Of a stretch of 12,616 bases of DNA, positions 1 through 12,616 are shown piece after piece (positions within the stretch are counted from its first letter, which is position 1; each line of letters starts with the position of its first letter). The notes beneath the pieces were generated by a model. That model searched no databases. It saw nothing but the letters and a program-made list of their open reading frames with translations, and was not told where the DNA came from. The translations under genes and the position numbers were made by a program. The stretch spans positions 1-12,616 of IMG/VR virus record IMGVR_UViG_2609459844_000008; one strand, 5' to 3'. The DNA is from a virus. Lineage: Duplodnaviria; Heunggongvirae; Uroviricota; Caudoviricetes.

Positions 1-471
1 CAGTTTTTTGGCAATATGTAAGCCCTGGCCGACACAGCCGTACTGCCCTTTGCTCAGGTCTGCCTTCGGATGATTCAGCGTACTCATATCCTGCACATCA
101 TGCAGACAGTGGTCAGCCGGGATGATGTCGTTATACGTACAACTCTCTCCACCCGGAGTTACCGTGCTGCGGCGCGCCAGCTGTTTAATGCGCGGATCCG
201 GAGCATCGTAAGAATCCGGTAACGGAAGCCCTTCACCGTAGGCCATGCCGTTGGACTGTCCGGCAAGCACAACCACGTAGAACCAGTCCGGCTCAGATGA
301 AGGGCCGACCTGTGGATCTCCTTCAATAGCCACCGCCTGCATCAGTGTGTACGGCGTAATGGCAACCGGTCCGCCATATGGCTGCCAGCCCTCTTTCAGT
401 TTGTGTGTCAGCTTTTCCGCAAGGTCTGACGGCGACGCCGCCCTGACAACATCATAGTGTTTAAATGCCAT
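1..471 (-). CDS. Sialate O-acetylesterase NanS-p-like protein, N-terminal 157 codons only (gene continues past the window start)
   Basis: Manual translation of the minus strand from ATG at 471..469 gives MAFKHYDVVRAASPSDLAEKLTHKLKEGWQPYGGPVAITPYTLMQAVAIEGD..., then ...VVVLAGQSNGMAYGEG... (GQSN motif of SGNH/DUF303 esterases). SD GGAGG 5 nt upstream. Resemblance to the DUF1737 N-terminus of Stx-phage 933W L0105-type esterases is from memory, not searched. Frame stays open to position 1. Confidence 0.7.
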   Translation of the reverse strand, partial: MAFKHYDVVRAASPSDLAEKLTHKLKEGWQPYGGPVAITPYTLMQAVAIEGDPQVGPSSEPDWFYVVVLAGQSNGMAYGEGLPLPDSYDAPDPRIKQLARRSTVTPGGESCTYNDIIPADHCLHDVQDMSTLNHPKADLSKGQYGCVGQGLHIAKKL

Positions 472-665
472 GAATCCTCCCGGCCGGGATAATATTGTGA
501 GTAAAATGAGGAGCGGGCTGAAGTCCGGAAGTTACAGGACAATGGCAGAAGAGAGACAATAGCCCGCAATACGAAAAAGGCCGCGCTATTGCGCAGAGTG
601 ATTACTGTCGGATATTATTCGCCAGCTGAAATATTACTTCACGTTTTGTTGTTTATTCCTTGCCG

Positions 666-693
666 CCCGCGTCTCCCTGCGCGGGATTTTTTT
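666..693 (+). terminator. Candidate intrinsic terminator (plus strand)
   Basis: 6-bp GC stem CCCGCG(666-671)/CGCGGG(680-685), 8-nt loop, followed by A then seven T (687-693). No plus-strand ORF lies upstream of it. Confidence 0.45.
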
Positions 694-696
694 GTC

Positions 697-724
697 CATA
701 AGAAAGCCCCTCCGGAGAGGGGCT
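697..724 (-). terminator. Candidate intrinsic terminator (minus strand), back to back with the previous hairpin
   Basis: Perfect 8-bp stem AGCCCCTC(705-712)/GAGGGGCT(717-724) with CGGA loop; on the minus strand it is followed by UUCUUAU (interrupted U tract), so strength is uncertain. Confidence 0.35.
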
Positions 725-920
725 GGAGAGTGGCGCTATGTGCCATTGCATGGTGCCGGGTGCCTCCCGGTGAATTCAGTACCAGCACCTGAATCCGCGA
801 TTATCCCATATACCTACTCGCTGATTGCCCCTCCGCACAGGGGGATTCACCATGCCAGTTTCTTTTAACAAACTCCCCGCAAAACAGACAACTGTCAACC
901 GTCTGAATTGTGAGACATTT

Positions 921-945
921 AAAAAAAAGGCCCGCAAAAGCGAGC
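921..945 (-). terminator. Intrinsic terminator closing the tRNA cluster
   Basis: On the minus strand: hairpin GCUCGC-UUUU-GCGGGC (one G-U pair) from plus 930-945, followed directly by eight U (plus A-run 921-928), ~15 nt past the 3' CCA of the last tRNA. Confidence 0.65.
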
Positions 946-960
946 AAGGGAAAATAAGTG

Positions 961-1037
961 TGGCGCGTTGTACTGGATTCGAACCAGTGACCGATTGCTT
1001 AGAAGGCAATTGCTCTGTCCGGCTGAGCTAACAACGC
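961..1037 (-). tRNA. argO: tRNA-Arg, anticodon UCU (reads AGA), 77 nt with encoded CCA
   Basis: Hand-folded cloverleaf of the reverse complement: acceptor GCGTTGT/ACAACGC, D-stem GCTC/GAGC, anticodon stem ATTGC/GCAAT with loop CTTCTAA, T-arm ACTGG-TTCGAAT-CCAGT, discriminator G, CCA. Symbol is by positional analogy to the ileZ-argN-argO cluster of Stx phages and is tentative. Confidence 0.85.
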
Positions 1038-1050
1038 AGGGTACAGATAA

Positions 1051-1127
1051 TGGACCGCCATCGAGGACTCGAACCCCGCGCAACCAGCTTCGAAGGCTGG
1101 CGCTCTATCCTGATGAGCTAATGGCGG
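1051..1127 (-). tRNA. argN: tRNA-Arg, anticodon UCG (reads CGA), 77 nt with encoded CCA
   Basis: Hand-folded: acceptor CCGCCAT/ATGGCGG (C1-G72), D-stem GCTC/GAGC, anticodon stem CCAGC/GCTGG with loop CTTCGAA, T-arm CGGGG-TTCGAGT-CCTCG (one G-U), discriminator U, CCA. Symbol tentative. Confidence 0.8.
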
Positions 1128-1134
1128 TATGTGA

Positions 1135-1206
1135 TGGTGGCCCTTGCTGGATTTGAACCAGCGACCTGGCGATTATGAGTCGCTCTCACCACTGAGCTAA
1201 AGGGCC
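1135..1206 (-). tRNA. ileZ: tRNA-Ile2 (lysidine)/Met-type tRNA, anticodon CAU, only 72 nt; anticodon stem appears truncated (possible pseudo-tRNA)
   Basis: Acceptor GGCCCTT/AAGGGCC, D-arm GCTC-AGTGGTGA-GAGC, T-arm GCTGG-TTCAAAT-CCAGC, loop CTCATAA and CCA are all recognisable. Only 2 nt (GA) separate the D-stem from the anticodon loop where 6 are expected; compared with E. coli ileX as I recall it, about 4 nt of the 5' anticodon-stem strand are missing. Confidence 0.6.
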
Positions 1207-1215
1207 GGGAGCCGC

Positions 1216-1244
1216 ATAATAACGACGCGTAATTAATTCTTCAA
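1216..1244 (-). promoter_or_regulatory. Candidate sigma70 promoter for the tRNA cluster
   Basis: Minus strand reads TTGAAG (1244..1239), a 17-nt spacer, then TATTAT (1221..1216). Predicted start is 2-3 nt upstream of the mature 5' end of the first tRNA (1206), consistent with a short RNase P-processed leader. Confidence 0.5.
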
Positions 1245-1368
1245 TATCATCCGTTCTGGCTGACTAAATCCTGTACTTCCCGAACCGTCTGCTCAAAACA
1301 TTCAGTCTCCAGCTCAACGCCAATTGCACGACGCCCGAGCGCCAGTGCTGCTTTGACGCTACGGACAT

Positions 1369-1397
1369 AAAAAAGCCAGCCACTGGGGGAGGCTGGC
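1369..1397 (-). terminator. Candidate intrinsic terminator (minus strand) upstream of the tRNA promoter
   Basis: Perfect 7-bp stem GCCAGCC(1375-1381)/GGCTGGC(1391-1397), 9-nt loop; on the minus strand followed by six U (plus A-run 1369-1374). Confidence 0.55.
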
Positions 1398-1580
1398 GAA
1401 ACTCGTAGAGCAAAAGTGTTGTTACACTAACTTCGTCACAGGATTATCCTGCAATACTCAAAATACACAATATTTACAAAACTAATAGTATACAAGGCGA
1501 TCTTTAAGATTTTGTTATAAATTATTGCCTTTCTCCTCTTTCCATGAGCTTTCTGGGTAGCCACAGAATTCCGGGTACAG

Positions 1581-1604
1581 AAAAACCCGCTCAGCGGCGG
1601 GTTT
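1581..1604 (-). terminator. Candidate intrinsic terminator (minus strand)
   Basis: Stem CCCGC(1586-1590)/GCGGG(1597-1601), extendable with A-T pairs to 8 bp, 6-nt loop; on the minus strand followed by UUUUUCUG. Confidence 0.45.
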
Positions 1605-2031
1605 AAGCTGTGTGACGAAGTAACCACTCTTAACAGCATAACCAATTTTTTACGTACGTAAACCACTAAATGATATTTGCGAGAATGCTACCGAGTATTG
1701 AAAACACCACTACAAATACATAAGCAAATCTCAACAAATAACCAACAAATAATTTCCAGTGTTATTTTTAGCCGGTTTAAATTGAACCTTCAAATTATAG
1801 AGCACTTATAAATAACAGCCGTTAATATAAATTGGCTAATAGATTTATTTTTATTCAGCCAAGAGCCATGAATAGGATTCGATAGAAAAAAGTTCAGATA
1901 AAAATAGAGATCTACTTCACAAATCAAACGAGAAACCAAAACTAACATCTTGAAATAATCACATTGATTAGATGAATATTTATCGCGCAGTGACATCATT
2001 TTTTAATAATAGTTCAAAAAAAGGGCTCACG

Positions 2032-3114
2032 ATGAAAAAATTAACAGTGGCAATTTCTGCTGTAGCTGCATCAGTACTGATGGCGATGTCTGCTCAGGCA
2101 GCTGAAATTTATAATAAAGACAGTAACAAGCTGGATCTGTACGGGAAAGTTAATGCTAAGCACTATTTCTCCTCTAATGATGCAGATGATGGTGATACTA
2201 CTTATGCCCGTCTTGGCTTCAAAGGTGAAACCCAAATCAACGATCAACTGACTGGTTTCGGTCAGTGGGAATATGAATTCAAAGGCAACCGCGCTGAATC
2301 TCAAGGTTCCTCCAAAGATAAAACCCGTCTTGCCTTCGCTGGCCTGAAATTCGGTGACTACGGCTCAATCGATTACGGCCGTAACTACGGTGTAGCATAC
2401 GACATCGGTGCGTGGACTGACGTTCTGCCAGAATTCGGTGGCGATACCTGGACCCAAACAGATGTGTTCATGACTGGTCGCACCACTGGTGTTGCAACTT
2501 ATCGTAACAACGACTTCTTTGGTCTGGTTGATGGTCTGAACTTTGCTGCTCAGTATCAGGGTAAAAATGACCGCACTGACGTAACTGAAGCTAATGGTGA
2601 TGGTTTCGGTTTCTCCACTACTTATGAGTATGAAGGATTCGGTGTAGGTGCAACCTATGCTAAATCTGACCGCACTAATAATCAGGTTATCTACGGTAAC
2701 AACAGCCTGAATGCATCTGGTCAAAATGCTGAAGTATGGGCAGCTGGTCTGAAATATGATGCGAACAACATCTATCTGGCTACCACCTATTCTGAACCCC
2801 AGAACATGACTGTTTTTGGTAATAACCATATTGCCAACAAAGCACAAAACTTCGAAGTAGTTGCACAATATCAGTTCGACTTCGGTCTGCGTCCGTCCGT
2901 TGCTTACCTGCAATCTAAAGGAAAAGACTTGGGTGCGTGGGGTGATCAGGACCTGGTTGAATATATTGATGTAGGTGCAACCTATTACTTCAACAAAAAT
3001 ATGTCCACTTTTGTTGATTACAAAATCAACCTGATTGATAAGAGCGATTTCACGAAAGCATCTGGCGTTGCTACCGATGATATCGTTGCTGTAGGTATGG
3101 TTTACCAGTTCTAA
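2032..3114 (+). CDS. Outer-membrane general porin, OmpC/OmpF superfamily, closest in character to OmpD/NmpC/Lc prophage porins (360 aa)
   Basis: Start taken at the internal ATG 2032 with SD AAGGG 6 nt upstream, not the 1972 ATG. Signal peptide [23 protein letters not shown] then [16 protein letters not shown]; characteristic porin motifs ([44 protein letters not shown]) and C-terminal ...VAVGMVYQF ending in Phe. TAA stop 3112-3114. Confidence 0.95.
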
Positions 3115-3138
3115 TTTGATTACTAAAAGATATGTTGC

Positions 3139-3157
3139 GGGGGGGTTTGCCTCCCCC
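3139..3157 (-). other. GC hairpin between the Q-like gene and the porin 3' end; weak terminator candidate on the minus strand
   Basis: G-run 3139-3145 pairs with C-run 3153-3157 around a 7-nt loop; on the minus strand it is followed by GCAACAUAUCUUUU (U tract displaced ~8 nt), so terminator function is doubtful. Confidence 0.3.
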
Positions 3158-3250
3158 ACATATAAGAGGCTCCCTCAAGCCACTTCCTTTAGGAGCACAA
3201 CCTTGCTTCTAACTATATAAACCTTCTGTTATATATTACCCTTTATTTTT

Positions 3251-3280
3251 GGGGGCGTTGCAACGCCCCATTTTTAATAA
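3251..3280 (+). terminator. Intrinsic terminator of the porin gene
   Basis: Perfect palindrome GGGGCGTTGCAACGCCCC (3252-3269) followed on the plus strand by ATTTTTAATAATTTTT. Confidence 0.6.
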
Positions 3281-3302
3281 TTTTTAGTAAACAATTGGCA
3301 TA

Positions 3303-3686
3303 TTAATTAGAGTTATTAACAACGATATCCATCTCTAACCGGATATCTAATGCCATTAACATCCCTTCAATTATGCCCTCAGCCTTCTGTAACCTTTTCC
3401 CGATATAACCATCAGAGCAGCAATGCTTACCTGCCAGTGACATGAATGTCATACCGACTACATAATAATCTACTAATAAATCGTGCAAATCGCTGTTGTT
3501 CTTTTTCAGACGGGCCATGCACCCGCAAATAATCATCGCGTCATCGTCACAACATTGCGGGCGAGATTTTACTTTTGAAGTAATTAATCCCTTAAAACCG
3601 GCGGCAATGGACGACCAGGTCACATCTTCATGATTATTAGCCGCCCACGCTCCCCAGCGTTCGAGAACCATCTGAATATCACGCAT
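3303..3686 (-). CDS. Late-gene antiterminator Q-like protein (QuuD/DLP12-type, 127 aa)
   Basis: Start moved from the TTG at 3701 to ATG 3686..3684, which has SD GGAG 7 nt upstream. Product [24 protein letters not shown]...[16 protein letters not shown]... matches my recollection of the DLP12 QuuD-type Q protein. Last gene of the minus-strand operon, convergent with the porin gene. Confidence 0.8.
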
Positions 3687-3703
3687 CAACTTTCTCCACA
3701 AAA

Positions 3704-4723
3704 TCAGGACAGCACACCAATCGCCAGCGCGCGATCGATAAAACGAAATATCAGCTCCAGTTGGGAACCATACTTCTCTTCAAATGCCACGGTATCCGCA
3801 TGTAGTTCGTCATGGTGTTTTCTGCACAAAGGCAACACAAAAAGGTCATGCGCTTTTGTACCCATTCCACCCTGACCATGACCAATCAGGTGATGAGGAT
3901 CGTCGGCTGGCTTACCACAACATGCACACGGCTGCGTCTTAACCCAGCGCGTGTACTTTTCATTAACCCAGCGACGACGTTTTGGGCGTAACATAAAAGA
4001 CTCCGGCGACTCCGGATCCACTTTCAGCGCCAGCACCTTTTTCGCTTTATCCTGGATGATGCTGGTGGCAGGAACCGAAGGCACAAGGTCACTTTCCCGG
4101 GTGACAGACGGCACAACAGGCTTCGGTAATCTCAGTGCCTTACGGGCTGCACTTTCCGGTAAGGCATCCGCCAGGTCATTACGAATCAGCCACCAGCACA
4201 GTTCCGGCATTGTCACAACGTGACTGTCATCAAAACCGAGATCCCGACGCACAACAGACAACACCCAGCGGGCACAGTTATCCGTTGCCATTGATTCCAG
4301 CCGTTCCGTGAACTGATCGCGCAGCTGGTTATCGCAGTGCCAGCACAGACGGATTGCACCCGGAGCGTGTCGCATTGTGGTCATGTTCTCGCTGTGCCAG
4401 TCGGAATGAGGCCACTGGCAGCCTTTTTCACGAAGTAACCAGCTTTCAAGACATTCCACGCCACCAGCACGACGGATCACTGCCTCATTGCGGAACACGG
4501 CCCGAACGGCAGGATCATCCGCCAGCGGTTGTGATGCCGCCGGAACGGCACCACTGGCGAAAGATGAATAACGTTCCGGCTCAGGCTCCAGCAGGACACG
4601 CCCCTGCATAAACAGGGGCATCAGCTCTGAACCGGGCCTGAACAATACAATCCCCATACGCGGGGCAATTTCAGGGGTCAGCAGTGCTCTCACGGTCACC
4701 TCAGCAAACGATATTGAATGCAT
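3704..4723 (-). CDS. nin-region protein, DUF968/YdfU-like, with a C-terminal HNH-like Cys/His motif (339 aa)
   Basis: ATG 4723..4721 with no strong SD. C-terminus ...[45 protein letters not shown] has the CxxC...HH...GG...C..HH spacing of HNH nucleases. Family name recalled, not searched. Confidence 0.7.
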
Positions 4724-4744
4724 ACAGAGAAAAAAACTCAGTCA

Positions 4745-5002
4745 TCACGCAGTAAACTCCTTCACCAGTATTTCAAACTGGCTTACCTGTCCTTCCAGTT
4801 CCTCCACGCAATCCACCAGCTCATCCACCGCCTTTTGTGTACGGTGTTTTGCCTGCAGCAGATCACGAAGCGCCGGAGTAAGCTGCTTGCGGAGCGTATC
4901 TTTTGCCACGCTCGTTTTTTCCATCTGTTCAGCACAACGAAGCATCTCCTGCGCCTGCCGACGAAGTTGTTCCGGTGAAACAGTGATTGTTCTGTTGTTC
5001 AA
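4745..5002 (-). CDS. Hypothetical small protein (85 aa), predicted helical/coiled-coil
   Basis: TTG start at 5002..5000 overlapping the DnaB-like TGA (TTGA), with GGAG 9 nt upstream. No recognised domain. Confidence 0.5.
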   Translation of the reverse strand: MNNRTITVSPEQLRRQAQEMLRCAEQMEKTSVAKDTLRKQLTPALRDLLQAKHRTQKAVDELVDCVEELEGQVSQFEILVKEFTA

Positions 5003-6399
5003 AATAAACGCTCCGTTTTACTGCCCGACATGCGGTTATTGCTGTATCTGCGCGGATTGCCCGGCGTCATGGGTGTGGAAAGAACCCGGGCACTCTCCTG
5101 ATCCACAGGCAGAAAATGCCCGTTATGAAAACGCCGGTAAATGGTACCCAGCGTGCCATTACGCTGTTTCGTGATGTTGATTTCTGCTATGCCTCTGGCC
5201 TGAGTTTCCGGGTTGTATACCTCATCCCTGTAAAGCATCAGAATGATGTCGGCATCCGCCTCGATTTCCCCGGAGTTTTTCAGGTCCGAGTTCATTGGGC
5301 GTTTATTGGGTCTGGATTCCACGCCGCGGGAGAGCTGGCTCAGAGCAATCAGCGGAAAACCGCCGGATTTTGCCAGGCTTTTAAGTCCCTTTGAGATTTC
5401 CCCCACCGCAAGGTCGTGACGCCCCGTGCTGCGGGTTTTAATCAGGCCGAGGTAATCGACCACCACCAGCGCCGTTTCCGGGTGTTTCATCCGGTGGTGC
5501 TTCGTGGTTGCACATATCTCATCAATGGTCAGGTTTGCCTGGTCCACCATCCAGATATTACGCCCCGTCATTCGTCCCACGCCCTGCGTGAAACGCGCCC
5601 AGTCTTCATCTTCAAAACGGGCAACAGACTTAAGACGGGATACCGGCATTCCACCGGCAGCAGACACCATACGTTCACCAATCTGGATGTTCGCCATCTC
5701 CATGGTGAACAGAAGCACGCCATGCCCCTGCTCAGTCACCTTGTCGATGATGTCCAGCGCAAGTTCGGTTTTCCCCATCGAAGGACGGGCGGCAATGAAT
5801 ACCAGGTCTCCGGGCTCCATACCGCCCGTTTTTGCGTCCAGTTCATCAATACCGGTCATCAGCGCCCTGGATTTCTCCAGTCCCTGATTGCGGCATTCAA
5901 CACGGTCGACCACTTCCGGAAGGACATCATCAATGTGAACCGGCTGAATGACGCCCTTTCCGGTCGACAGTGAGGCCATCATGTTCTGCGCATCCTTCAG
6001 GGCATCCTCGGCTGCTTCACAGGTATACGCATCACGTAAATTCTGTAATGCTTCAGTCAGTGTTTTTTCTGCATCGCGCAGTGCGGCATTGCGCCGCAAC
6101 GCTGCGACATAGTGCTCCAGTGAAGACTTCACCCAGGTTTTGCGTCCGGTGTCGGTAATCACCGGGGCAAGTTCCGGCATCTCATTGCACAGCAGTACGG
6201 GGTCAATGACGCCGGATATGCGAGCCTGTCTGCAAATCCCCGCGTAAATATCCCGGTACTGACGCACAAAAAATACATCCGCCGGAAGTGTGGCCAGAAT
6301 ATCCATCACTTCCGGATCGGCCCCACGCAGAAAAAACGCACCGATGACAGCGCCTTCCAGGTCATCGTTACGCCATGCCGGGGTGTTCTGGCTGGTCAT
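4999..6399 (-). CDS. Replicative DNA helicase, DnaB family (466 aa, phage-encoded)
   Basis: ATG 6399..6397 overlaps the upstream stop (ATGA); SD GGAGG upstream. Walker A AARPSMGKTELALD and Walker B LVVVDYLGL, typical DnaB N- and C-domain sequence. Confidence 0.95.
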   Translation of the reverse strand: MTSQNTPAWRNDDLEGAVIGAFFLRGADPEVMDILATLPADVFFVRQYRDIYAGICRQARISGVIDPVLLCNEMPELAPVITDTGRKTWVKSSLEHYVAALRRNAALRDAEKTLTEALQNLRDAYTCEAAEDALKDAQNMMASLSTGKGVIQPVHIDDVLPEVVDRVECRNQGLEKSRALMTGIDELDAKTGGMEPGDLVFIAARPSMGKTELALDIIDKVTEQGHGVLLFTMEMANIQIGERMVSAAGGMPVSRLKSVARFEDEDWARFTQGVGRMTGRNIWMVDQANLTIDEICATTKHHRMKHPETALVVVDYLGLIKTRSTGRHDLAVGEISKGLKSLAKSGGFPLIALSQLSRGVESRPNKRPMNSDLKNSGEIEADADIILMLYRDEVYNPETQARGIAEINITKQRNGTLGTIYRRFHNGHFLPVDQESARVLSTPMTPGNPRRYSNNRMSGSKTERLF

Positions 6400-7295
6400 G
6401 CGGCAACACCTCCGATACGAGAACGGTAGCTGGGCCAGTTAAACGACAACCAGTTGCGCCCGCCATCGGTGATCCTGTCGGCAATCCGGGGACTGATGAA
6501 CGCCCACAATTCTTCCGGTGAAAGGTTGCTGATCAGGATAGTTGGCAAAATACCCTCATACCGGGCATTGATAATTTCCTGCAAAATGGCCATTTCAGCC
6601 GCACTGCCAAACTGAACGCCGACTTCGTCGACAATCAGCAAATCCAGTGACGCATAATGCTCAATGACGTCATCCGCTGTTTTTTCACTGTCATTCCGCC
6701 AGCAGTTTTTCACAGCCCGGGTAAGGCGCATCACGTCGGTGATCTCCACACTGGCCAGATAGTTACGGATGATGTGTTTTGCCATTGATACCGCCAGATG
6801 ATTTTTCCCGGTACCGCAACTGCCGGTCATAACAATACTGGTACCGTTCTCCAGCATATCTGGCCAGTTCTCCGCATAGCGGCGACAGGCCGCAAGATTT
6901 CTGGCTGCGTCAGGATTAACCTCCAGATAATTATCAAACTCGCAGTCCCGAAAACGCAGAGCAATTCCGGCGTTATCAGTCAGTTCTTCCGCCTTGAGGG
7001 ACGACAGTTCCATGGTCAAATCACTGGCCTCAGCGATCAAGCAGTCAGGGCAGCATGAAATTTTTTCTCTGTCCTCGCCATTACGATCGATCCACACCAG
7101 TATATGCGTACGATATTTACCGTGTTTTTCGCAATATCCGCGATCTTCACGCATCAGGCAGGAACGATAAGGCCATGGCTTTTCGCCCTTCTGAGCAAAT
7201 GCAATCTCTGCCCGTAACTCATCCATTTCTGCCCGTAACTCATCCATTCGCGCCTGTAGTCTTGTTTGTTTCTCACGTTGGTCAATCGTCATCAT
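6396..7295 (-). CDS. DnaC-like helicase loader, IstB-type AAA+ ATPase (about 299 aa)
   Basis: Walker A GSCGTGKNHLAVSMAK and Walker B LLIVDEVG. The longest ORF starts at GTG 7304; ATG 7295..7293 is preferred because GAGGT sits 7 nt upstream. The N-terminus contains a perfect 7-aa duplication (MDELRAE x2). Confidence 0.9.
   Translation of the reverse strand: MMTIDQREKQTRLQARMDELRAEMDELRAEIAFAQKGEKPWPYRSCLMREDRGYCEKHGKYRTHILVWIDRNGEDREKISCCPDCLIAEASDLTMELSSLKAEELTDNAGIALRFRDCEFDNYLEVNPDAARNLAACRRYAENWPDMLENGTSIVMTGSCGTGKNHLAVSMAKHIIRNYLASVEITDVMRLTRAVKNCWRNDSEKTADDVIEHYASLDLLIVDEVGVQFGSAAEMAILQEIINARYEGILPTILISNLSPEELWAFISPRIADRITDGGRNWLSFNWPSYRSRIGGVAA
7207..7248. repeat. Perfect 21-bp tandem duplication (2 copies) inside the DnaC-like gene
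   Basis: TCTGCCCGTAACTCATCCATT at 7207-7227 and again at 7228-7248; in frame, encoding MDELRAE twice. Confidence 0.9.
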
Positions 7296-7305
7296 CGCTG
7301 TCACC

Positions 7306-8298
7306 TCAGAATGTCAATTTGTTACTGGATTTACCGAATTTGTCAGACATGGCTCCCAGGCCAGCCAGGACATCGACCTGTCGCTGTCGCCCACCTCCGT
7401 GAGCGGCTGGCTGTTGCCAGTAATCTTCGAAGTGACGATCGGGTCCAAAGAACGTCGCAGCCTGCTTCACGAACTGTGTGCCGGTATTTCCTGTAGCACG
7501 TACCCAGGCGGCATACCGCTTCACGCCATCAAGCATGGTCTCCGGTTTTATTCCCTCCCTGATACGGGCTTTCCAGGCTTTGAAGGCTGCTGACTTGGAA
7601 TTGCCACCAGCACGTTTGGGATATTCCTGCCAGGCCTGTTCAAATTCCGGTGAATATTCCTGTCGGGCAGAACGCGCTGGCGCAGACGCGTCAGCGGATG
7701 CATCAATAGTGTTTTTAGTCTCCGTTGTAATCTCTGTAGTAATCTCTGTATTTGTATCAACATTCGGCGTATCCCCTGTTCCGTTATGACGTCGGGGGGT
7801 GTTCCGTTTTAACGTAATAGCTGTATCGCTGATTGCATTATTGCTGTTACTTTCTGGCGAAACAGAAGAAGGTGTGGTGATGGCCGCAATTGCCTGTGGG
7901 TTGATCCCGACAAACAAAATATTGCTGCATTTCACCCCATCGAGCATTTCCACCGTGCGTAAATCCAGAGTAATAAACCCTGTATCGCGCAGACGCTTCA
8001 GCGCATCTGCGGTTTCCCTTTTCCCGAAACCAAACTGCTCAGCAAACGCCTGGTAGCTTCTTTGCAGTTTGTCGCCCTGAAAACGCTTGCGATATCCCAG
8101 CAACGCTCCGGTGTGCTCATCCCTGACCTCTGTCGGGCGGTACCAGTAAACGATCTCTGAAAGCAGAGCGATAGCCGTCGCATCCGGACGCCCACTGGGT
8201 AGTCGAATATATTTCCACCAGTTCGCAGGTGTAACATTGCCGGAAATATTAATTTGACCAATAGCCATAACTTCCGGTGTGGGGGCGTAACGGCTCAT
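7306..8298 (-). CDS. Phage replication initiator / replisome organiser, lambda O-like (330 aa)
   Basis: ATG 8298 with SD AAGGAGG upstream. N-terminal domain and C-terminal region (EYSPEFEQAWQEYPKRAGG...AAWVRATGNTG...) separated by a low-complexity T/E/I/S-rich linker; sits directly upstream of the loader and helicase genes. Confidence 0.85.
   Translation of the reverse strand: MSRYAPTPEVMAIGQINISGNVTPANWWKYIRLPSGRPDATAIALLSEIVYWYRPTEVRDEHTGALLGYRKRFQGDKLQRSYQAFAEQFGFGKRETADALKRLRDTGFITLDLRTVEMLDGVKCSNILFVGINPQAIAAITTPSSVSPESNSNNAISDTAITLKRNTPRRHNGTGDTPNVDTNTEITTEITTETKNTIDASADASAPARSARQEYSPEFEQAWQEYPKRAGGNSKSAAFKAWKARIREGIKPETMLDGVKRYAAWVRATGNTGTQFVKQAATFFGPDRHFEDYWQQPAAHGGGRQRQVDVLAGLGAMSDKFGKSSNKLTF
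7727..7750. repeat. 12-bp direct repeat, 2 tandem copies, in the linker-coding part of the O-like gene
   Basis: GTAATCTCTGTA at 7727-7738 and 7739-7750, encoding TEITTEIT, with degenerate related sequence on both sides. Confidence 0.8.
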
Positions 8299-8594
8299 AC
8301 AACCTCCTTCCGCGGCATGAGAATTGTGTAGCCACGCGCAGGTTGTAGTCTGGCTTTTGCATCAATAGTAAGCGTTGCAATTTTTCGGATATGAAGATAA
8401 CCAGCTCTTTCCAGTGCCAGGGTTTCCCTGAATATCGCTTGCTTAGAACAACAGCAGAAATCAGCAAGCACCTGATGATCAATAACTCTCTCGCCTTCAC
8501 CGTCTGAAGAACCCGACATCAAAACACGCAACATAACCAGGCGCTGAATCGGGTTATCGAAAGCACATCCGCACACAAACTGAAAACAGTTCAC
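8295..8594 (-). CDS. Hypothetical protein (99 aa), possible winged-helix DNA-binding fold
   Basis: GTG start overlapping the upstream stop (GTGA); stop overlaps the O-like ATG (ATGA). Segment VLADFCCCSKQAIFRETLALERAGYLHIRK resembles a recognition helix and wing. Start codon uncertain. Confidence 0.55.
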   Translation of the reverse strand: MNCFQFVCGCAFDNPIQRLVMLRVLMSGSSDGEGERVIDHQVLADFCCCSKQAIFRETLALERAGYLHIRKIATLTIDAKARLQPARGYTILMPRKEVV

Positions 8595-8815
8595 GCCACA
8601 CCTCCCAGACGCTTAAACATTTTTCCAGACAGAAATACCGCCAGAGGGTAACTGATGGTGTAGCTACGCCCCTGTAGTTCGCACACGACTTTCTGGCTTT
8701 CAGCGTTGACCAGGCAAACCCGCAGAACGTGACCGTTGCTGGTGGCGAACCACTGCCCCACACGGGGGCAACGGTTGTATCGGTGATACAGGGAATTAAC
8801 GATGTGGCGGATCAT
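8591..8815 (-). CDS. Hypothetical protein (74 aa)
   Basis: ATG 8815 with SD GGAGGTG 7 nt upstream; 4-nt overlaps with both neighbours. Confidence 0.6.
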   Translation of the reverse strand: MIRHIVNSLYHRYNRCPRVGQWFATSNGHVLRVCLVNAESQKVVCELQGRSYTISYPLAVFLSGKMFKRLGGVA

Positions 8816-9006
8816 GGATGCACCTCCGCCGTAGTTACGTATTTAACCGGGCTACCTTTCATTGAGATGGTTTCACACATCTCTGCCGCTTTCAGTTCCG
8901 CTGTTTTTCTGGATTTATAGCGACGGTGCCAGACAGATACATCCGTGCGAACTGATACATCGTTTCTGTATTCCGTAGTGGAGATGATGATTTCGTAACT
9001 AATCAT
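8812..9006 (-). CDS. Hypothetical protein (64 aa)
   Basis: ATG 9006 with SD AAGGAGG upstream; ATGA overlap with the Rha-like stop. Confidence 0.6.
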   Translation of the reverse strand: MISYEIIISTTEYRNDVSVRTDVSVWHRRYKSRKTAELKAAEMCETISMKGSPVKYVTTAEVHP

Positions 9007-9554
9007 GGGCGAACCTCCTTGTCAGAACCATTCAGCCTGGAATCAACAAGTGCAGCGCCAAAAACAGCATCACCAACACGGTCGTACAGTTTGCTAGCCA
9101 GCGGAGATTCAATGGCCTTAAGCATTGGATAAAGCTGGCTTGTCCAGATTTGATGGATTTCACGCAAATGCAGGTATACGCCTCTGGCGTTTCGTGCGAC
9201 AGCTGACATATCAACCGCGTCAGCACCAGATAAATTCTTCTCCATCTGGTTAAAGGCGTTGATGTATGCCTCTTTGAACCGGGCTGCACGTTTGCCAGTA
9301 AAGCCCATAGCAAGGAACGCGAAGCCATCACGGGTGATTTGATAGCAAGGTAGTTTGCGGCCTGTGCAATCGGTGTAATCACTCACCGAAAAATTGCGGG
9401 CAGTGAATGATGCGGAGCATTCAAGCGTGCGGATCTTTTTCAGTACATCGTCATGACGCTTGGAGAAGAAGTTGGCAACAGCCAGGGATGAAGTAACAGC
9501 CTGACCATCAACGATGGCAATTTCAGGTTGAGTGAGGGTTGGGATCGTAGCCAT
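9003..9554 (-). CDS. Phage regulatory protein Rha family (183 aa)
   Basis: Start set at the internal ATG 9554..9552 with SD GGAGG 8 nt upstream; the 100-codon extension up to 9854 has no RBS and is low-complexity. Product has Rha hallmarks: FSKRHDDVLKKIR, YQITRDGFAFLAMGFTGKRAARFKEAYINAFNQME. Confidence 0.8.
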   Translation of the reverse strand: MATIPTLTQPEIAIVDGQAVTSSLAVANFFSKRHDDVLKKIRTLECSASFTARNFSVSDYTDCTGRKLPCYQITRDGFAFLAMGFTGKRAARFKEAYINAFNQMEKNLSGADAVDMSAVARNARGVYLHLREIHQIWTSQLYPMLKAIESPLASKLYDRVGDAVFGAALVDSRLNGSDKEVRP

Positions 9555-9938
9555 GATGGCAGCCTCCGTTGACTGTGGAAAACTTCCACCACCGGAGCTG
9601 CGAAACTCACTGGTGGCAGACTGAACAGGGTTCGCAGTACCGGCGTCAACGGAGACCGGCGAGCCTTTCGGCTCCCCTGCCCAGCCCACCATAATTCTGG
9701 CGTGCGTGAGCGCGGACGATAAAAAAGACGCTGGCGCGTCATATATCGCCGTTGACAATTCCGGGCTGCGACCCCCGGCACCCGCTTTATAAGGTGCAGA
9801 GACAGTGTAACGTCCCGAAATTGCAGAATCAATATTTGGTCTTGAAATGATCATATAGCTGCTGATATCTTTAGAACTGTTCTTGGATGTTTCGGAGCCG
9901 TTTTATGCGAAACAGCTCCCCGTTATTGATGTTGAGTG

Positions 9939-9963
9939 AGCCGGGTTACTCCCGGCTTTTTTT
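9939..9963 (+). terminator. Strong intrinsic terminator on the plus strand with no plus-strand gene upstream
   Basis: Perfect 7-bp stem AGCCGGG(9939-9945)/CCCGGCT(9951-9957), loop TTACT, then seven T through 9963. It abuts the stop codon (9965..9963) of the minus-strand gene; on the minus strand it is preceded by A and not followed by U. Confidence 0.6.
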
Positions 9964-10358
9964 CACCGCTGCCAACCAATAACCTGAAATAACCCCATTT
10001 TCGGGTGATACCAGCGAGTCCCTCGCGGTTCTGCTTCCTCCATAACCCGATAAAAAGCAGCCATAAACGGTTCCACAGCAACAATTGCGCGACGTGACAA
10101 CAATCCGTCCGGCGTCATGAACTCATGTGTGTCTGTAGGAATTTGATAGGCGTTCACCAGATTGCGGCATTTATCATCTGACAAACCGGTTTTTGCTTTC
10201 AGTTGGCGATATCCGGCATAGCCCTCACGAATAGTGCCCTTTTTAATTTGCTCGACTGTTTCAGCAACGTGGCTGACTTTTTCTTCCACCTGAGTGATCC
10301 GTTTCTGCTGACGAACTGCTTCAAGAGCCATCGCGGCAACCATTTCGATTTCGCTCAT
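9963..10358 (-). CDS. Hypothetical prophage protein (131 aa); first gene of the minus-strand block
   Basis: ATG 10358 has no convincing SD. The frame is stop-free for 53 more codons upstream (to TGA at 10520..10518) but contains no ATG/GTG/TTG. No recognised domain. Confidence 0.55.
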   Translation of the reverse strand: MSEIEMVAAMALEAVRQQKRITQVEEKVSHVAETVEQIKKGTIREGYAGYRQLKAKTGLSDDKCRNLVNAYQIPTDTHEFMTPDGLLSRRAIVAVEPFMAAFYRVMEEAEPRGTRWYHPKMGLFQVIGWQR

Positions 10359-10520
10359 TGGCTTACGGATCTGTTCTTCCAGTTCGCGCCAGCGATCTAC
10401 CAGGCGAGCAGTGAATTCAGGACAGAGCTGTGCGACGACAATGATGCTGTCGCGCTTAACTCCGGATGGTTGGATAAGCTGTAGTGAGCGAATGCCGGAC
10501 GACAGGCAGGAGGTGAATCA

Positions 10521-10622
10521 ATGAGCTGGCCTGATGCAATCGTAACTCTGGGGGGTGGTATTCGCAGCAGCGTTTGTTGTGTTCTCGATTTGTCGATGGG
10601 GATAACCACATGTTCGCTTTGA
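10521..10622 (+). CDS. Candidate small ORF (33 aa) with a strong RBS, overlapping the start of the next gene; possible leader/upstream ORF
   Basis: AGGAGGTGA at 10508-10516, ATG 10521; product MSWPDAIVTLGGGIRSSVCCVLDLSMGITTCSL; TGA 10620-10622 overlaps the downstream ATG at 10610 out of frame. Below the size cut of the ORF track. Confidence 0.3.
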   Translation: MSWPDAIVTLGGGIRSSVCCVLDLSMGITTCSL

Positions 10623-10852
10623 TTCAACGCGGTCAGATATACACGGACAGAGCCGGATACCCCGTGGTGATTACTCGCATCACTGAGCACTCAGTGTTCT
10701 TTCGACGGATGGACGGACGATCCGGGCGGGTACGCATTGGTGAGTTAAACTGCCTGTTCGAACATATTGACCACCAGGAGTACCGCAAAATTCTCGCGGA
10801 CACTGAGCAGGAAAAGCACCTGAAAAAATTACGAGCCATAAAAAGGAAGTAA
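10610..10852 (+). CDS. Hypothetical small prophage protein (80 aa)
   Basis: Internal ATG 10610 preferred over the TTG at 10574. Product MFALIQRGQIYTDRAGYPVVITRITEHSVFFRRMDGRSGRVRIGELN...; TAA at 10850-10852. Confidence 0.6.
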   Translation: MFALIQRGQIYTDRAGYPVVITRITEHSVFFRRMDGRSGRVRIGELNCLFEHIDHQEYRKILADTEQEKHLKKLRAIKRK

Positions 10853-10855
10853 AGA

Positions 10856-11002
10856 ATGAATAAAGCATTTGAACGATGGGTCCACCAGCGTTACGGCAAT
10901 CGCTATTACCTGACGCGAGATGTTGACGGCTTCTACTGTCGTGAAGTTGTGAAGCGAATGTTTGAAGTGTGGTGCCACTGCCGTGGGCTGAGTGTTGTGT
11001 GA
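10856..11002 (+). CDS. Candidate small protein (48 aa) with a C-terminal Cys/His cluster
   Basis: ATG 10856 three nt after the upstream stop, with AGGAAG 4 nt upstream (short spacing, probably coupled). Product MNKAFERWVHQRYGNRYYLTRDVDGFYCREVVKRMFEVWCHCRGLSVV; TGA 11000-11002 lies 8 nt before the next ATG. Not in the ORF track. Confidence 0.45.
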   Translation: MNKAFERWVHQRYGNRYYLTRDVDGFYCREVVKRMFEVWCHCRGLSVV

Positions 11003-11010
11003 GGTAATAC

Positions 11011-11247
11011 ATGGGCAATGTGATTCAACTGGCTCCCAATGAATGGGTTTGTGAAAGCGTTCTTATCGCAATTACCGGGCTCAAACCAGGCACAATTCTT
11101 CGGGCCCGGAAAGAATGCTGGATGGTTGGAAGAGAGTATATTCACGTATCACCAGACGGTAATCCAAAGCCTTCCAGTGAATGTATGTATAACAGAAAAG
11201 CAATAGATGCCTGGGTCGCCTCAATGAAAAACAAACAACCCAGGTGA
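11011..11247 (+). CDS. Excisionase-like small DNA-binding protein (78 aa)
   Basis: ATG 11011 with GAGG 6 nt upstream; immediately upstream of and co-oriented with the integrase. Resemblance to prophage excisionase-like proteins is from memory. Confidence 0.65.
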   Translation: MGNVIQLAPNEWVCESVLIAITGLKPGTILRARKECWMVGREYIHVSPDGNPKPSSECMYNRKAIDAWVASMKNKQPR

Positions 11248-11302
11248 TTTAATATCATGAAATATGTAAGCTCGTATCGCTCTTGGGCGTCTGGAGGTAT
11301 CG

Positions 11303-12616
11303 ATGGATAAAGTCAAATATCCAACAGGCGTCGAAAACCACGGCGGCACATTACGCATCTGGTTTAATTTTAAAGGTAAACGTGTCAGGGAAAATCTTGG
11401 TGTCCCTGACACTGCCAAGAACAGGAAGATCGCCGGGGAACTGCGGACATCAGTATGTTTTGCCATCCGCACAGGAAGCTTTGATTATGCTGCACAGTTC
11501 CCTGACTCCCCCAACCTTCAGGCTTTTGGGGTAAGTAAAAAAGAAATTACGGTGAAGGAACTTGAAGAAAAGTGGCTGGATCTGAAACGAATGGAAATCT
11601 CTGCAAATGCATTCAATCGCTATGAATCCGTTGCAAGAACGATGGCTCCGAAAATTGGAGGCAGTAGACTGGTGTCATCGGTAACCAAAGAGGAATTGCT
11701 GTATATCAGGAAAGATTTGCTTACCGGGTATCAGAATTCAACGAAAAACAAAGCAGCAGCAAAAGGACGGAGCGTCGTTACTGTAAATTATTACATGACG
11801 ACAATCGCTGGAATGTTTCAGTTTGCTGCAGATCACGGTTACTTAGAAGCAAATCCCTTCCAGGGAATTAAGCCTCTTAAAAGAGCCAGGGCAGAGCCAG
11901 ATCCGCTAACTCGTGACGAATTTATTCGCCTGATAGATGCTTGCCGACATCAGCAGACGAAAAACCTGTGGTCATTGGCTGTGTACACAGGAATGCGTCA
12001 CGGTGAACTGGTCTCCCTGGCCTGGGAAGATATCGATCTGAAGGCAGGAACAATTACCATCAGGCGCAATTATACGAAACTTGGTGAGTTCACTCTACCG
12101 AAAACTGAAGCAAGCACAAACAGGGTTGTGCACCTTATCCAGCCCGCTATCAGTGTCCTGAAAAATCAGGCTGAAATGACAAGACTGGGTAAGCAGTACA
12201 ACATCAAGGTGCAACTACGTGAATATGGACGTTCAGTGAACCATGAATGTACTTTCGTGTTTAACCCTCAAGTGGTTAGAAAAAGCGAACAGGTAGGTTT
12301 TGTCTACAAAGTCGATTCTGTAGGTGACTCATGGGAAACAGCCATTAAGCGTGCAGGGATCAGGCATCGAAAGGCATACCAGTCACGACACACTTATGCG
12401 TGCTGGTCATTATCTGCCGGAGCAAACCCAAGCTTCATTGCCAGCCAGATGGGCCATGCAAGTGCCCAGATGGTATTCAATGTATACGGAGCATGGATGA
12501 CTGACAGCAATGCAGAACAGATCGCAATGCTGAATCAGAAGCTGACAGATTATGTCCCAATGATGCCCCATAGTCACCAAAGTGACACCAGAGGCTTATT
12601 AAAATCAGTAAGTTAA
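11303..12616 (+). CDS. int: Tyrosine site-specific recombinase / phage integrase (437 aa)
   Basis: ATG 11303 with SD GGAGGT at 11293-11298. C-terminal catalytic domain with ...YTGMRHGELVSLAWEDIDL... (Arg), ...RHTYACWSL... (His-x-x-Arg) and ...MGHASAQMVFNVYGAW... (His and Tyr). TAA at 12614-12616. Overall resemblance to Stx-phage 933W-type integrases is recalled, not tested. Confidence 0.95.
   Translation: MDKVKYPTGVENHGGTLRIWFNFKGKRVRENLGVPDTAKNRKIAGELRTSVCFAIRTGSFDYAAQFPDSPNLQAFGVSKKEITVKELEEKWLDLKRMEISANAFNRYESVARTMAPKIGGSRLVSSVTKEELLYIRKDLLTGYQNSTKNKAAAKGRSVVTVNYYMTTIAGMFQFAADHGYLEANPFQGIKPLKRARAEPDPLTRDEFIRLIDACRHQQTKNLWSLAVYTGMRHGELVSLAWEDIDLKAGTITIRRNYTKLGEFTLPKTEASTNRVVHLIQPAISVLKNQAEMTRLGKQYNIKVQLREYGRSVNHECTFVFNPQVVRKSEQVGFVYKVDSVGDSWETAIKRAGIRHRKAYQSRHTYACWSLSAGANPSFIASQMGHASAQMVFNVYGAWMTDSNAEQIAMLNQKLTDYVPMMPHSHQSDTRGLLKSVS

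Follow-up and report, generated by a model that had tools for sequence, protein, structure and literature searches.

The locus raises the question of whether a prophage tRNA-Ile2 gene that appears too short to hold a complete set of tRNA helices is a real allele and, if it is, whether its product can still act as a tRNA. The gene lies in the window, the whole stretch of 12,616 nt analyzed here (positions 1 to 12,616 of IMG/VR record IMGVR_UViG_2609459844_000008). A first-pass annotation made from the sequence alone had counted only two nucleotides between the D-stem and the anticodon loop, estimated that about four were missing, described the 5' strand of the anticodon stem as lacking, and proposed either a decaying pseudo-tRNA inside an otherwise intact operon or a non-canonical structure. 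Using ARAGORN, a tRNA(cat) of 72 nt was located at exactly 1135-1206 on the minus strand (Table 1; gene sequence, GGCCCUUUAGCUCAGUGGUGAGAGCGACUCAUAAUCGCCAGGUCGCUGGUUCAAAUCCAGCAAGGGCCACCA), with the anticodon at position 30, not at position 34. Alignment with the 76-nt ileZ genes of the Stx-prophage type (Stx2a_WGPS8, AP012540.1; PhiR49_2, PV340570.1) and with K-12 ileX and ileY confirmed both counts. All retained positions (72/72) are identical to those of the phage ileZ, from which the window copy differs solely by a 4-nt gap, and the D-stem 3' strand GAGC is followed by only G26 and A27 of the 72-mer (1181-1180) before the loop CUCAUAA begins. This variant is referred to below as the delta-4 allele.

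Table 1. Positions of the delta-4 ileZ gene, its junction and neighboring features in the window (72-mer, the 72-nt gene).
Feature	Position	Strand	Basis
ileZ delta-4 allele, 72-nt tRNA-Ile2-type gene, anticodon CAT, encoded CCA	1135..1206	-	ARAGORN; Rfam RF00005
Contraction site GAGCGA, remnant of GAGC-GAGC-GA; 72-mer positions 22-27	1180..1185	-	Alignment with 76-nt alleles
Anticodon loop CUCAUAA (CAU 1177-1175) and anticodon-stem 3' strand UCGCC (1172-1168)	1168..1179	-	Sequence; Rfam alignment
argN-type tRNA-Arg(UCG), intact	1051..1127	-	ARAGORN; Rfam 56.0 bits
argO-type tRNA-Arg(UCU), intact	961..1037	-	ARAGORN; Rfam 70.1 bits
Sigma-70-like promoter TTGAAG-17-TATTAT, consensus match only	1216..1244	-	Sole promoter-like match in 600-3400
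Intrinsic-terminator-like hairpin GCTCGCTTTTGCGGGC and T8 run, directly after argO	920..945	-	Sequence
3' stub (114 nt) of a DNA methyltransferase gene	1247..1360	-	PGAP pseudogene in near-identical L003-L005
quuD, Q antiterminator	3303-3701	-	

Where D-stem and anticodon stem meet, the sequence is GAGC-GAGC-GA in the 76-nt gene and GAGC-GA in the window (1185-1180). The deletion falls inside the tandem repeat GAGCGAGCGA, a 2.5-copy tetranucleotide that in the 76-nt gene makes up G22-A23-G24-C25 (the 3' strand of the D-stem), G26, and A27-G28-C29-G30-A31 (the 5' strand of the anticodon stem). Loss of one tandem GAGC unit is the signature of replication slippage, and the lesion is most likely such a contraction in the lambdoid-prophage tRNA-Ile2(CAU) gene ileZ. 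Because the repeat is common to both stems, loss of the D-stem 3' strand is as valid a description as loss of the anticodon-stem 5' strand. The earlier statement that the latter is lacking holds as one of these two equivalent descriptions, and it is incomplete in that the entire strand AGCGA is retained (positions 23-27 of the 72-mer), where it overlaps the D-stem strand GAGC (22-25) and can form the same pairs with UCGCC as the 76-nt tRNA does.

Outside the junction, the 72-mer is unchanged in its 7-bp acceptor stem with C4-G69 and C5-G68, its T-arm, its variable loop and its anticodon loop. It has a 7-nt anticodon loop with U33 and a purine at position 37 (CUCAUAA), the T-loop UUCAAAU (GGUUCAAAUCC) and an encoded 3' CCA, and no second lesion was found in the alignment with the 76-nt ileZ. 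The four helices of a tRNA cannot all be assigned, as the D-stem (10-13/22-25) and the anticodon stem (23-27/35-39) share nucleotides 23-25. Since A23-G24-C25 cannot sit in both helices, pairing either with C11-U12-(G10) in the D-stem or with G41-C42-(C43) in the anticodon stem, the two stems are mutually exclusive and no canonical L-shaped tRNA would be formed. The firm point about the predicted structure is thus a combinatorial one, a single A-G-C being available for two helices.

The Rfam tRNA model matched 1138-1206 at 58.2 bits (gathering threshold, 29), and its alignment left three pairs broken and lacked four model positions in the 5' half of the anticodon stem, in agreement with the 4-nt gap. 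For comparison, the 76-nt ileZ scored 72.5 bits and K-12 ileX 73.1, so that the deletion costs ~14 bits (72.5 to 58.2), and the 72-nt gene still outscores its neighbor argN (56.0). A score well above threshold is thus found together with a non-canonical fold, whereas a normal score and a canonical fold together had been named beforehand as evidence against a defect. In the cloverleaf drawn by ARAGORN, the anticodon stem is kept and the D-stem is reduced to two Watson-Crick pairs and two mismatches closing a 4-nt loop. Folding of the 72-mer with ViennaRNA gave a minimum free energy (MFE) structure of -27.5 kcal/mol, in which a normal D-stem is combined with a non-tRNA GACU/GGUC helix and an 11-nt loop, and further structures at -27.1 kcal/mol (shifted D-stem 11-14/19-22 with a normal 4-bp anticodon stem), -23.7 kcal/mol (D-stem with a 2-bp anticodon stem) and -22.8 kcal/mol (anticodon stem without a D-stem). 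The canonical D-stem made up a fraction of 0.32 and the canonical anticodon stem 0.14 of the ensemble, values that illustrate the competition only. The cloverleaf is not the MFE structure even for the 76-nt ileZ (L001 1736-1811; -29.0 vs -33.5 kcal/mol) or for K-12 ileX (L006 2599-2674; -32.8 vs -36.5 kcal/mol), so nearest-neighbor folding is not decisive for the 72-mer. As these controls misfolded too, ViennaRNA energies were dropped as an arbiter of which helix forms.

By sequence, gene order and position, the delta-4 gene is assigned to the lambdoid/Stx-prophage ileZ-argN-argO cluster, the identity of which we take from record annotations. The window matches L001 and L002 in gene order, and the spacing (7 and 13 nt) and the placement between Q and the lysis cassette are also the same. 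Genes for an esterase, a holin and a lysozyme follow the tRNA cluster in L003-L005, which are nearly identical to the window. The description of the operon as otherwise intact was upheld, as argN, argO, the promoter-like site and the terminator all look undamaged, and the argN score is close to those in loci carrying the 76-nt ileZ (56.2 and 53.6 bits). About 10 nt separate the -10 element of the predicted promoter from the mature 5' end of ileZ. With the putative promoter, the terminator, the acceptor/T-arm minihelix and the encoded CCA all intact, transcription and end-processing of the cluster, argN and argO included, should be unaffected by the lesion, as expected of RNase P substrates. 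In L016-L018, the methyltransferase gene of which the window keeps a stub precedes ileZ as a complete gene of 1,050 nt. Between the Q antiterminator and the tRNA genes, the window carries an OmpC-like porin gene (1972-3114, plus strand; Pfam Porin_1, E=1.5e-152), which lies opposite to the strand of late transcription.

Compared with the host genes K-12 ileX and ileY (tRNA-Ile2, k2C34), the window ileZ has the same CAU anticodon, anticodon loop, A73, C4-G69 and C5-G68, and its T-stem and the 5' half of its D-arm are identical. The host genes are 76 nt long, and their junction reads GAGC-A-GGCGA, an imperfect tandem repeat. They differ from the window copy also at positions 6, 20, 26-27, 43-44, 59 and 67, and at the top of the anticodon stem the A27.C43 mismatch of phage ileZ stands against G27.U43 in ileX/ileY.

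An indel in a short repeat is sometimes artefactual, and a sequencing or assembly error in the window had to be weighed. The exact 72-nt gene was found in 8 of 5,426 complete E. coli genomes (2013C-4830, 2012C-4227, SCU-105, TUM13773, SW070912, O111:H21 15A, B1-56 and AF39), which come from the USA, Japan, the UK and Ecuador, from clinical, river and wastewater sources and from different laboratories. The delta-4 junction (29-mer CTCAGTGGTGAGAGCGACTCATAATCGCC) was present in six IMG/VR contigs, including one of metagenomic origin. Its recurrence in eight independently sequenced complete genomes and six contigs, in at least three flanking contexts, and the nature of the repeat as a tetranucleotide, not a homopolymer, leave an error with a negligible probability; an assembly artefact was rejected, and the delta-4 allele is real, artefact being excluded for practical purposes. 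The window is 99.6-99.7% identical to AF39, 15A and L009/L013 and 98% identical to B1-56. It is identical to none of the fetched loci and so represents a further independent copy of the allele.

The allele is rare. The 76-nt gene was the best copy in 2,952 other complete-genome records (~7,200 copies in all), and its junction was present in at least 120 IMG/VR contigs among the matches listed; the delta-4 allele makes up ~0.1% of ileZ copies, and its frequency is put at ~0.1-0.3%. No exact match to the delta-4 junction was found in GTDB species representatives. The allele was found in none of 284 phage records with ileZ, all of which carry the 76-nt form, and in none of 17 plasmids, but at a frequency of ~0.1-0.3% fewer than one match would be expected among 284 phages, and its absence from all three sets is uninformative. 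All alleles of normal architecture are 76 nt long, and none has the length of the window copy, which accords with the first-pass annotation. Further phage-type ileZ copies are present in seven of the eight carrier genomes; in TUM13773 the 72-nt gene is the sole ileZ of phage type. Searches for ileZ, argN and argO in the full-text literature returned nothing relevant.

The flanks of the delta-4 loci were compared with those of 113 loci carrying the 76-nt gene. Context A (the window, 15A, B1-56 and AF39) contains quuD, an ompC-like porin gene and the 114-nt methylase stub. Context B (L014/L015, two CDC strains) belongs to a prophage disrupted by IS elements and contains Q, a CPBP protease, a TrmB with a frameshift and an HTH protein. 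Context C (L016-L018) has the intact 1,050-nt methylase gene behind two different Q genes, and context D (L011/L012) combines a C-like upstream region with a two-tRNA array without argN. Contexts A and C have a common, nearly delta-4-specific downstream haplotype and are 0.1-0.4% apart; they plausibly go back to a single deletion event, A having arisen when ompC took the place of most of the methylase gene. A locus with the 76-nt gene, L131, is identical to context C over ~740 nt around the tRNA cluster except for the 4-nt indel and one base of a T-run, and only 96.9% identical to it over 4.6 kb. L087/L031, two loci with the 76-nt allele, match context B at 99.4% identity over 4.7 kb. On the upstream side, B parts from A/C no more than 5 nt before the tRNA, and on the downstream side from ~80 nt past the deletion. 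Because the B and A/C flanks differ so close to the gene, import of the deletion into B would need a conversion tract of at most 105 nt, and an independent contraction is the simpler reading. For context D, either a further independent event or a crossover confined to 57 nt would have to be assumed.

On the basis of these flanks, the deletion probably arose at least twice. The alternative is that it arose once and was spread to the different contexts by homologous recombination between prophages, which concerns its origin only, not its function. Recombination among lambdoid prophages is extensive, A and C have in common a haplotype that is nearly confined to the delta-4 allele, and context D looks like a C-type upstream region joined to an L122-type downstream region. 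Moreover, the reciprocal +4 allele (three GAGC units) was found neither in IMG/VR nor in ~7,500 complete-genome copies, which counts against a strong slippage hotspot. A single origin nevertheless remains doubtful, as the tract imported into B would be confined to ~105 nt (ileZ, the 8-nt spacer and 18 nt at the start of argN) with flanks on either side that match loci carrying the 76-nt gene, and the crossover leading to D would have to fall within 57 nt.

The identity set of bacterial tRNA-Ile comprises A73, C4-G69, U12-A23, D-loop positions, C29-G41 and the modified anticodon loop, and a CAU tRNA-Ile2 without lysidine is no substrate for IleRS (PMC9976931). [quoted passage not shown] The 72-mer retains the acceptor features of tRNA-Ile2 (GGCCC...GGGCC-A, with C4-G69, C5-G68 and discriminator A73) together with CAU. 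In contrast, the IleRS determinants U12-A23 and C29-G41 exclude each other, as the single A-G-C serves either as 23-25 or as 27-29. With these determinants in conflict and the anticodon-stem/elbow geometry contacted by TilS lost, little or no functional tRNA-Ile2 would be expected.

The following course of events is proposed. Replication slippage would have removed one GAGC unit from a 76-nt ileZ, and the resulting 72-nt RNA would probably still be transcribed and end-processed. With the geometry of the anticodon stem and elbow presumably disturbed where TilS makes contact, the RNA would most likely be neither lysidinylated, charged nor used on the ribosome. The defect would be tolerated because the chromosomal ileX and ileY, and usually also further prophage ileZ copies, supply tRNA-Ile2. 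We consider it likely, at a probability of roughly 0.8, that slippage generated the delta-4 ileZ as a null or strongly hypomorphic allele and that it persists neutrally, the loss of function being what we infer from its structure. Of the two options offered by the first-pass annotation, the pseudo-tRNA is preferred because the lesion bars a canonical cloverleaf while the rest of the cluster is intact; the word decaying fits less well, as a second lesion is lacking.

Several observations run counter to a null allele. The remainder of the gene shows no further decay, and a near-cloverleaf fold lies only 0.4 kcal/mol above the MFE (ViennaRNA). The allele has lasted long enough to be found behind different Q and replication modules and is thus not strongly counter-selected, its covariance score exceeds that of argN, and PGAP raises no flag. 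The lack of decay and the near-cloverleaf fold would suit a functional, non-canonical tRNA-Ile2 that is modified, charged and used, perhaps less efficiently. Such a molecule would have a 3-nt connector (8-10), a D-stem of C11-G22/U12-A21/C13-G20(/A14-U19) with a 4-6-nt loop, no nucleotide 26, and an unchanged anticodon arm (A.C+GCGA/UCGC). This slipped cloverleaf corresponds to the fold at -27.1 against -27.5 kcal/mol, and it leaves unaltered the anticodon stem-loop, the variable loop, the T-arm and the acceptor stem with the TilS determinants C4-G69/C5-G68; the covariance score far over threshold and the maintenance of the allele in several prophage backbones without further lesions would also be in keeping with it. 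However, the shifted D-arm would lose U8-A14, A21, G10-C25, nucleotide 26 and the IleRS determinant U12-A23, and the G18/G19 elbow contacts would be buried or displaced. No change elsewhere in the gene compensates for the lesion, and its frequency is ~0.1%, with 0/284 among sequenced ileZ phages. To our knowledge, no natural bacterial elongator tRNA has an architecture with a slipped D-arm and no nucleotide 26. A functional 72-mer is accordingly regarded as improbable. If it did function, it would represent a non-canonical bacterial elongator tRNA accepted by TilS, IleRS, EF-Tu and the ribosome, and a natural test of how much of the D-arm and hinge is needed by E. coli translation. It is very improbable that the allele encodes a working slipped-D-arm tRNA-Ile2 or that the GAGC repeat serves as a recurrent on/off switch of a prophage rare-codon tRNA.

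The preferred reading, a null or strongly hypomorphic allele, places the gene near tRNA pseudogenes and damaged prophage tRNAs, with which it has in common a helix-disrupting lesion in a redundant, horizontally carried gene. It differs from them in having a single clean lesion, a score of 58 bits and no flag from annotation pipelines. In all eight carrier genomes (8/8), PGAP entered the allele as tRNA-Ile, 72 nt, with no pseudogene flag; as marks of a pseudogene, the structural lesion is thus present, and a pipeline flag (PGAP) and multiple lesions (alignment) are not. PGAP is based on tRNAscan-SE. If the anticodon stem wins the competition, the 72-mer would resemble D-arm-reduced tRNAs of the mitochondrial type in having a truncated or slipped D-arm with the other arms present. 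Mitochondrial tRNAs with reduced D-arms work with co-evolved mitochondrial factors, whereas the delta-4 ileZ shows no sign of such adaptation, and the likeness is structural only.

Occasional damage to prophage rare-codon tRNAs is to be expected because the host ileX and ileY make them redundant, and the delta-4 allele fits such occasional decay. The lesion is of an ordinary kind, and its main value is as an annotation caveat: a tRNA gene predicted to be unable to form a cloverleaf reaches 58 bits and is listed among the normal tRNA-Ile genes of at least eight RefSeq genomes, so that prophage tRNA counts slightly overstate the number of functional genes. A tandem tetranucleotide that spans two adjacent tRNA helices would constitute a mutational weak point, and prophage rare-codon tRNAs appear to be dispensable enough that null alleles persist and recombine among prophages.

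Other variants were seen in prophage ileZ copies from IMG/VR loci with the 76-nt junction. Helix-breaking changes comprise a 1-nt deletion in the acceptor 3' strand (L023), G69A, which hits the C4-G69 determinant (L034), A66C (L054) and G1A (L105). In L066 and L132, C5T and C3T variants give G.U pairs, and T47C in the variable loop occurs in L092, L097 and L129. Overall, ileZ has 10 variable columns among 100 haplotypes; the flank variability figures obtained for comparison were inflated by non-homologous modules and were discarded. In L011 (2110-2209) and L122 (363-462), the slot of argN consists of ~100 nt in which ARAGORN recognized no tRNA. As argN is missing with both the 72-nt (L011) and the 76-nt (L122) ileZ, the gene is lost or replaced in the haplotype of these two loci.

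Elsewhere in the window, the sequence parts from its closest relatives at 10458, inside a gene for a Rha-family regulator (9963-10358), whose ORF encodes 131 aa here and ~235 aa in L005. Beyond this point lie an excisionase gene (DUF1233, 11011-11247, plus strand) and an integrase gene (11303-12616, plus strand). No cI/cro-like immunity genes were recognized between 10458 and the excisionase and integrase genes, which suggests that the early-left/immunity region is deleted in this prophage. Rfam models identified a C4 antisense RNA (9609-9696, minus strand, 78.8 bits) and isrK (9721-9797, minus strand, 58.7 bits), both inside an Ash/Rha-family ORF (9003-9854, minus strand) and within its Pfam Phage_ASH stretch (aa 16-111). 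Either C4 and isrK are RNA genes nested in a coding sequence, or the ORF has been called too long, its start and some of the Pfam match extending over conserved RNA genes. Directly downstream of the tRNA cluster, Rfam identified an STnc100 sRNA (694-884, minus strand, 139 bits) with its own terminator hairpin (724-705). In Stx2a_WGPS8 (L002), stx2A/B lie between argO and a copy of STnc100, which places this sRNA at the edge of the stx-carrying slot.
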